Of a stretch of DNA of 6,437 nt, positions 6,001 to 6,437 are shown piece after piece. The DNA is from a virus (Duplodnaviria > Heunggongvirae > Uroviricota > Caudoviricetes): IMG/VR virus record IMGVR_UViG_2541047435_000013. One strand, written 5' to 3'. Positions within the stretch are counted from its first letter, which is position 1, and each line of letters starts with the position of its first letter. The position numbers were made by a program.

Positions 6001-6437
6001 GCTCTTTGTAGGTTATGGCGTTATCGCGGTAATGATTCAGCCCCAGACTAAGCGCACCACAGGCTACCAGCAGGACAATAATCACCACACACAGAACACG
6101 GTTCATCTCTCTTTCACCCCACCAGTCCCGATAACGTCAGGACTCGCCAGGCGGTGGAAAAGAAAATGGCAACCAGCATGACTAAAAATGAAATGCCGAC
6201 GATTACACAGAGGATCTTCGCCAGCGTTATGAGTTTATCCGATATCATTAGCCACCACTCCATCAATCCGCCTTTGTTATTTTCCCTTTGCCTGTATCAG
6301 CCAGGACAAAATCAATCAGCAGATTCGCTTCGTTTATCAATGTGCGGATTTTTGATACATGCGCGGATTTAACCTGTTTCCACTCATTCAGCCCGGTAGC
6401 AAACACACTGGCAATGTTTTTATCCCGTTTCATGTCA

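Follow-up and report, generated by a model that had tools for sequence, protein, structure and literature searches.

A small reading frame for a single-helix membrane protein between ant and Rz in the late operon of a 933W-type Stx phage

Gene content of the window and the junctions of sTM

The DNA analysed here (the window, 6,437 nucleotides in all) is the late region of a 933W-type Stx phage, and over 838 bases, from Rz up to its end, it shows 100% identity with many Stx-converting Traversvirus phages, including Stx2 phage I, Stx2 phage 86, PA2, P13771 and 75/02 Stx. Its features are listed in Table 1. The subject of this study is an ORF encoding a small membrane protein of 49 aa, for which we use the working name sTM.

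Table 1. Features of the window, with positions counted from its first nucleotide
Feature	Position	Strand	Remarks
portal	340-2415	-	
large terminase	2415-4121	-	
small-terminase-like gene	4102-4908	-	268 aa
12-nt tandem repeat, 4.4 copies	4720-4772 (also 4643-4679)		in the small-terminase-like gene; encodes a (K/T)DHEIDH repeat
81-aa ORF	4964-5209	-	between bor and the terminase genes
bor lipoprotein gene	5317..5610	+	convergent; marks the end of the lysis cassette
Rz, i-spanin	5642..6106	-	154 aa
Rz1, o-spanin lipoprotein	5701..5886	-	embedded in Rz, +1 frame
sTM-Rz spacer AAGAGAG	6107..6113	-	7 nt, from the sTM stop to the Rz ATG at 6106
sTM	6114..6263	-	49 aa; ATG 6263-6261, stop TGA 6116-6114; RefSeq WP_000455406.1, member of phrog_4906
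conserved 44-aa sTM core	6114..6248	-	from Met6, ATG 6248, MISDKLITLAK...; common to 43-aa homologues without ant
72-aa antisense ORF	6154-6372	+	over sTM and the ant 3' end
ant 3' end	6263..6437	-	runs past the window edge; stop TGA 6265-6263 overlaps the sTM ATG

The reading frame of sTM is uninterrupted over its 49 codons and its translated product is MEWWLMISDKLITLAKILCVIVGISFLVMLVAIFFSTAWRVLTLSGLVG. The ATG shares a single base with the stop codon of the upstream gene (TGATG, within ...GAT TGA TGG...), and a TTG lies one codon 5' of it, at 6266. At the other end, the spacer that leads to Rz forms, together with the GGGGTGA before it, the SD-like site of Rz (-6.8 kcal/mol). The original prediction of a 49-aa ORF whose start overlaps the upstream stop and whose stop lies 7 nt before the Rz ATG is therefore confirmed in the sequence on each of these points, and the tight packing against Rz within the late lysis operon that it described is borne out by the gene order and by the length of the spacer. 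With 71 ORFs of 30 aa or more in the window, the length of sTM is unremarkable on its own; sTM fills the only gap in a closely packed operon transcribed from the same strand.

The same prediction had placed sTM where the 3' end of an endolysin gene would be expected. Full phage genomes correct this point, as the gene 5' of sTM is ant and not R: the order is S - R - about 275 bp - ant - sTM - Rz/Rz1, followed by bor on the opposite strand. From this gene order, the frame ending at 6263 is the C-terminus of Ant, an antirepressor of 189 aa in which P22_AR_N and ORF11CD3 domains are recognised. The end of R lies about 840 bp to 1 kb upstream, which rules out an endolysin 3' end at this position. 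The holin encoded by S has 71 aa, is of class II (S21-type) and has Met1 and Met4 as its dual start. The product of R is a phage lysozyme of 177 aa whose N-terminus (MSRKFRYGLSAVVLALIAAGASAP) is basic and then runs into a Gly/Ala-rich segment, as in SAR endolysins, and the R genes of these phages have also been classed as SAR endolysins (PMC8136144). The stretch of about 275 bp between R and ant holds a terminator-like hairpin. On the far side of bor, the 81-aa ORF of Table 1 is named an 'Rz-like spanin' in PV189400.1 (L002 4229-4474) and a 'hypothetical protein' elsewhere; the former label looks like an annotation error.

Start codon, expression and conservation of the reading frame

In prophages that lack ant, homology to the window starts at Met6 of sTM, and the copies carried by these prophages are 43 aa long (MSDKLITLAK...). 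In these ant-less copies the conserved ATG has a strong SD before it (AAGGGAGGA, -11.3 kcal/mol), and in the window allele SD-like sites lie before both Met1 (-7.1 kcal/mol) and Met6 (-6.0 kcal/mol). More generally, in each genomic context the conserved ATG has an SD-like sequence on its 5' side, the duplex energies ranging from -6 to -11 kcal/mol. In the Sakai-type allele, 3 nt are deleted in frame between the Met1 and Met6 codons. Since the core beginning at Met6 is common to the 43-aa copies without ant, the ATG at 6248 is a candidate start, and possibly an alternative or even the true start of sTM; judged from the sequences, the conserved unit is the 43-44 aa from Met6 onwards.

Consensus scans, which can miss weak promoters, found no sigma-70-like promoter on either strand from S to bor (L002 1500-4200). 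A search of Rfam returned no match at E <= 1, by which an RNA element at sTM was ruled out. Directly 3' of R, at the left edge of the DNA inserted between R and Rz (hereafter the insert), lies a terminator-like GC hairpin followed by a T-run (L002 2439-2461, L006 2245-2263), the sequence of which differs between inserts carrying ant and those carrying p60, one of the alternative neighbours described below. This hairpin is presumably read through by Q-modified polymerase. No promoter-like site lies within the insert. The late transcript antiterminated by Q, from which the holin, the endolysin and the spanins are also made, is therefore presumably the only source of sTM.

One hundred loci were fetched and yielded 18 distinct sTM alleles, of which 16 are intact and free of in-frame stops, at a protein divergence of up to 40%. 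Nei-Gojobori omega values are 0.24-0.47 for most of the diverged pairs and 0.63 for one of them, L012 against L013; the sum over pairs gives 0.33 for the sense frame, the lowest value of the six, the other five frames ranging over 0.54-1.31. The N-terminal half (MSDKLITLAKILCVIVGISF) is near-invariant in protein, and its variable sites are distributed 4/4/10 over the three codon positions. Comparison with a distant copy, L100, gives omega values of 0.25-0.6. The most diverged E. coli allele (L102, P0072) differs from its nearest relative, L013, by Sd 3 and Nd 17 (omega above 1), and here sTM looks, from these counts, to evolve neutrally. This allele sits in a rearranged prophage, in which IS66 elements lie upstream of the holin and a fragment of the tail-tip gene J directly after Rz (L102 1-1416 and 3582-4861).

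The two remaining alleles (L004 and L008) are frameshifted, and they carry the only two frameshifting indels seen among the sTM copies: an insertion of 2 nt (AT) at about 2560 in L004, which is a decayed plasmid-borne remnant, and a deletion of 11 nt at about 2570 in L008, each of which breaks the frame alone. Both indels occur together in L105 (2099-2221) and L106 (2410-2532), where the frame is restored and a 40-aa product results; this points either to compensation of one indel by the other or to recombinants derived from an allele with both indels in frame. Loss of the frame, absence of a synonymous-site pattern and common frameshifts, which the original prediction had named as grounds for abandoning it, were not encountered, as the frame is maintained, the pattern at synonymous sites can be seen and only 2 of the 18 alleles are frameshifted. 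The 72-aa antisense ORF over sTM and the ant 3' end is likewise open in all alleles; as a gene it was rejected, its omega of 0.54 against 0.33 in the sense direction being that expected of the shadow of a coding frame. These substitution patterns indicate that sTM is a real small membrane protein under weak-to-moderate constraint.

When 933W, VT2-Sakai and Stx2 phage I were first annotated, the gap between ant and Rz was left blank. sTM had been described as lacking annotation and as below the length that standard gene callers handle. Both statements are wrong, as sTM is WP_000455406.1, a member of phrog_4906, and has a named Sakai counterpart, XECs191. PGAP calls it, under the name 'hypothetical protein', in the E. 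coli genomes of RefSeq; PHANOTATE and Pharokka call it too. Its match to phrog_4906, a family of unknown function, aligns all 49 residues with all 49 positions of the profile (E 1.4e-33), and the 43-aa form (WP_001280932.1, also a 'hypothetical protein') matches the same profile at E 2.1e-23. These two accessions, phrog_4906 and XECs191 are one family with sTM, with no difference between them, and none of the entries has an assigned function.

XECs191, the Sakai allele of sTM (MMGWLMISDKLITLVKSLCVLVGISFLVMLVAIFFSTAWRVLTLSGLVG, 94% identical to the window sTM), is among 465 intergenic ORFs reported to carry ribosome footprints (Hucker et al. 2017, PMC5597208). In LB it showed a transcriptome RPKM of 30.0, a translatome RPKM of 12.6, an RCV of 0.43 and a coverage of 0.55, and its product was predicted by the authors to reside in the inner membrane (PMC5597208). 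It should be noted that this Ribo-seq signal is modest and near the authors' threshold, that the cultures were uninduced and that the locus has several near-identical prophage copies. A literature search with the sTM accession found no mention of it, and reviews on Stx-phage lysis cassettes and on spanins do not mention it either. Taken together, the gap that it fills, its SD, the conserved frame, the third-position bias and omega values and the published footprints on its Sakai counterpart raise sTM above a chance ORF, and we consider it very probably a real protein-coding gene. It is an already catalogued, ordinary phage ORFan that adds no new object; the contribution made here lies in its right context (ant, not R), its conserved core of 43-44 aa and the set of its alternative neighbours.

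Distribution and alternative neighbours

A query spanning window positions 6090-6437, that is the ant 3' end, sTM and the start of Rz, matched 1258 of 5426 complete E. coli genomes, many of these matches covering the small-ORF part only; matching genomes do so at a median of 2 places and at up to 9. The sTM protein matched 276 phage records, and roughly 3700 copies of sTM lie in the complete E. coli genomes. The 100 fetched loci share the order holin - R - (ant, p60 or p31) - sTM - Rz, with two Rz alleles, except for L014 and L100/L101, so that sTM is found after three unrelated upstream genes. In all loci other than these exceptions, sTM lies directly before Rz. In L014 the order is p31 - sTM - p60 fragment - Rz. 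In L100/L101 (P0066) a copy about 60% identical is found in an unrelated P27-type cassette, which encodes holins of two other families and an endolysin of the GH108 type. Upstream of this copy lie an ANT-domain gene distinct from ant and a homologue of p31; downstream of it come a lipoprotein-like ORF of 51 aa and an HNH gene, but no Rz. The 51-aa ORF has an LLVGC lipobox and belongs to phrog_7528.

p60 is a tail-anchored ORF of 60 aa with a soluble N-terminal part of 35 aa (phrog_1115), and p31/p45 is a tiny hydrophobic ORF of 31-45 aa (phrog_6632). Both share the locus, strand and host range of sTM and co-occur with it in ant-less alleles, but they belong to other families, and p60 differs further by its tail anchor and soluble part. 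The endings of p60 and p31 are alike, ...L(I/V)xA(I/L)K(G/S), and the two may be distant homologues. The R/Rz junction also gathers other tiny membrane ORFs (L006 2304-2486; L014 1890-1998 and 2135-2251; L100 2861-2998 and 3167-3322).

Among the genomes surveyed, sTM was seen only in lambdoid prophages of E. coli and Shigella, always late in the lysis cassette and usually just before Rz. In the DLP12 and Qin cassettes of K-12 the insert is absent and R overlaps Rz; the K-12 small proteins YnfQ, YnfR and YnfS were ruled out as sTM, no such ORF being present in these two cassettes. When 1.84 billion representatives were searched with a profile HMM, the 28 matches were all close members or fragments, and no relatives beyond this narrow family came to light. 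A scan of one genome per species returned a single match, 100% identical, on a 328-bp contig of Xanthomonas pisi DSM 18956 (L019, NZ_JPLE01000251.1), which is a probable assembly contamination. No homology to a characterised protein was found in Pfam, NCBIfam, PADLOC, the annotated PHROG families or the exhaustive HMM search. That sTM might be what is left of a longer, disrupted gene was also considered; no intact homologue of greater length was found, and the longer entries are read-throughs or alternative starts.

Membrane character and possible roles of sTM

The Kyte-Doolittle mean of sTM over 19 residues peaks at 3.14, in one strongly hydrophobic segment, and the AlphaFold2 model is a single helix over residues 2-45 (pLDDT 89), which is uninformative on function. 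Together with the conservation of the frame, these values support the earlier proposal of a genuine coding ORF for a peptide with one transmembrane segment. Two conserved Lys precede the helix and, by the positive-inside rule, the protein is probably oriented N-in.

sTM was compared with known small membrane and lysis proteins. Like the holins and pinholins (lambda S, phage 21 S21 68/71; Phage_holin_2_1), it is small, inner-membrane and encoded on the late transcript of a lysis cassette, and it has the transmembrane domain, at least one, that is required of a holin. However, it has one strong TMD and no charged cytoplasmic tail: its C-terminus, ...AWRVLTLSGLVG or ...WMMLSSSGLLG, bears 0-1 charge, whereas that of the cassette's own holin, already of the dual-start S21 type, is KIKEDRRKAARGE. 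The ant-linked alleles with both Met1 and Met6 show a superficial likeness to the holin dual-start motif, but the N-terminal extension carries Glu instead of Lys and is missing from the ant-less alleles. No holin family matched sTM, and Pfam gave nothing at E <= 0.1; among the PHROG families the 49-aa form matched phrog_4906 only, and the 43-aa form additionally gave one weak match (E 0.013) to another family of unknown function. The suggestion that sTM is a holin is thus not supported by its tail or by family matches. BLASTP aligned sTM with none of the phage's own Rz, S and R, which disposes of sTM as a duplicated Rz TMD, holin TMD or SAR domain.

The releasin of phage Mu, gp25, is likewise a non-holin protein with a single TMD, and its gene too follows that of a SAR endolysin at a distance of a few genes (PMC9239132). 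Mu releasin (DUF2730) has 99 aa in an N-out/C-in topology and an anionic cytoplasmic domain of 73 aa that is needed for function, and it sets a precedent for accessory membrane proteins acting on SAR-endolysin release (PMC9239132). By contrast, sTM is a near-bare helix of 44-49 aa; as it has neither the cytoplasmic domain nor a match to DUF2730, it is not a releasin. An i-spanin has an N-terminal TMD and a periplasmic coiled-coil; sTM is not an i-spanin, as it has no periplasmic domain and gives no BLASTP alignment to Rz. With the type I toxins (Hok/Gef, TisB, Ldr, DinQ) sTM shares a length below 60 aa, one hydrophobic helix and the inner membrane. It differs from them in lying inside a polycistronic late operon, in having no promoter of its own and no antisense RNA or site like an antisense promoter (promoter-like sites were absent from both strands and Rfam was null), and in lacking sequence likeness to them. 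No defence family of PADLOC matched sTM at E <= 1.

Our best explanation, which we hold at roughly even odds, is that sTM is a translated single-pass inner-membrane gene in an accessory insert of the late operon, presumably a lysis-linked accessory. The insert lies between a SAR-type R and Rz/Rz1 in some lambdoid phages of E. coli and Shigella and is made up of ant, p60 or p31 followed by sTM. Ribosomes could move from ant via sTM to Rz, since sTM begins within the ant stop and ends in the ribosome-binding region of Rz, with 7-12 nt left to the Rz start. In the inner membrane, the protein may act by helix-helix contacts that tune a late step, probably without forming a hole itself; candidate targets would be the release step of pinholin and SAR endolysin, or the membrane anchor of Rz. 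The basis of an accessory role in lysis consists of position, co-expression and membrane character. As intact-looking cassettes without sTM exist, the gene would be dispensable. That it is a dispensable inner-membrane accessory of the late or lysis operon, whose helix acts on a membrane-embedded lysis protein, is a possibility that we put forward tentatively, and we are equally tentative in proposing that sTM modulates lysis at all.

An unrelated moron, which the original prediction had offered beside a lysis accessory, is almost as likely as the latter. It is possible, if doubtful, that sTM is cargo with no part in lysis that came with ant, p60 or p31 to a permissive junction of the late operon, and it might then serve, just as tentatively, in superinfection exclusion, in interference with other phages or in an effect on the host membrane. 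The insert always carries non-lysis genes, including two unrelated antirepressor families, and the junction is shared with ant and other tiny ORFs, a pattern compatible with a moron no less than with a lysis accessory. The same cassette has other insertion points, where YdfR or DUF1327 genes occupy the interval from S to R. L100 keeps sTM though no Rz follows, cassettes without sTM look complete, the host range is narrow (E. coli and Shigella prophages) and the constraint is moderate. On the other hand, the absence of its own promoter would restrict expression to the late lytic phase, which is poor timing for exclusion or for a benefit to the lysogen; PADLOC was null, and all contexts found, in three cassette types, are at the distal end of a lysis cassette.

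Alternatively, translation of sTM might matter and its peptide not, the ORF being a spacer that carries ribosomes from ant or p60 to Rz and keeps the RBS open; it would thereby replace the coupling between R and Rz broken by the insert. In cassettes of the ancestral type R overlaps Rz, and the junctions of sTM with the ant stop and the SD region of Rz would suit such a role. So would the conservation of the last codons (SGLVG/SGLLG and TGA) where they overlap the Rz SD, the double indel that restores both the frame and the stop position, and the omega near or above 1 in one lineage. We nevertheless judge this improbable, for the spacer and for the replaced coupling alike: the near-invariant N-terminal half has changed mostly at third positions, the hydrophobic helix is kept in every allele, sTM is retained in L100, which has no Rz, and Rz has an SD of its own. 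Finally, a chance ORF in a non-coding ant-Rz spacer, with its annotation propagated by automated pipelines, is very improbable, for although the window is rich in ORFs, hydrophobic peptides come easily from AT-rich or T-rich frames, the antisense frame is open too and the Ribo-seq support is weak, the frame is conserved over three unrelated upstream contexts and two cassette types with an SD in each context, has the lowest omega and is free of stops in nearly all of its diverged alleles.

The lysis cassette of Stx phages is usually drawn as S-R-Rz/Rz1, and the query that includes sTM matches about a quarter of complete E. coli genomes. In these phages Shiga toxin is released by cell lysis, and factors in lysis timing are thus of some medical interest. 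Returning to sTM as a lysis-linked accessory, it is unlikely, though conceivable, that sTM alone or with p60 or p31 represents a new type of lysis regulator, a bare TM helix acting on pinholin triggering, on SAR-endolysin release or on the Rz anchor. If this were true, sTM would be a 'TMD-only' antiholin- or releasin-like factor of the S21/R21-type cassettes of Stx phages, one that would modify the timing of Shiga-toxin release.
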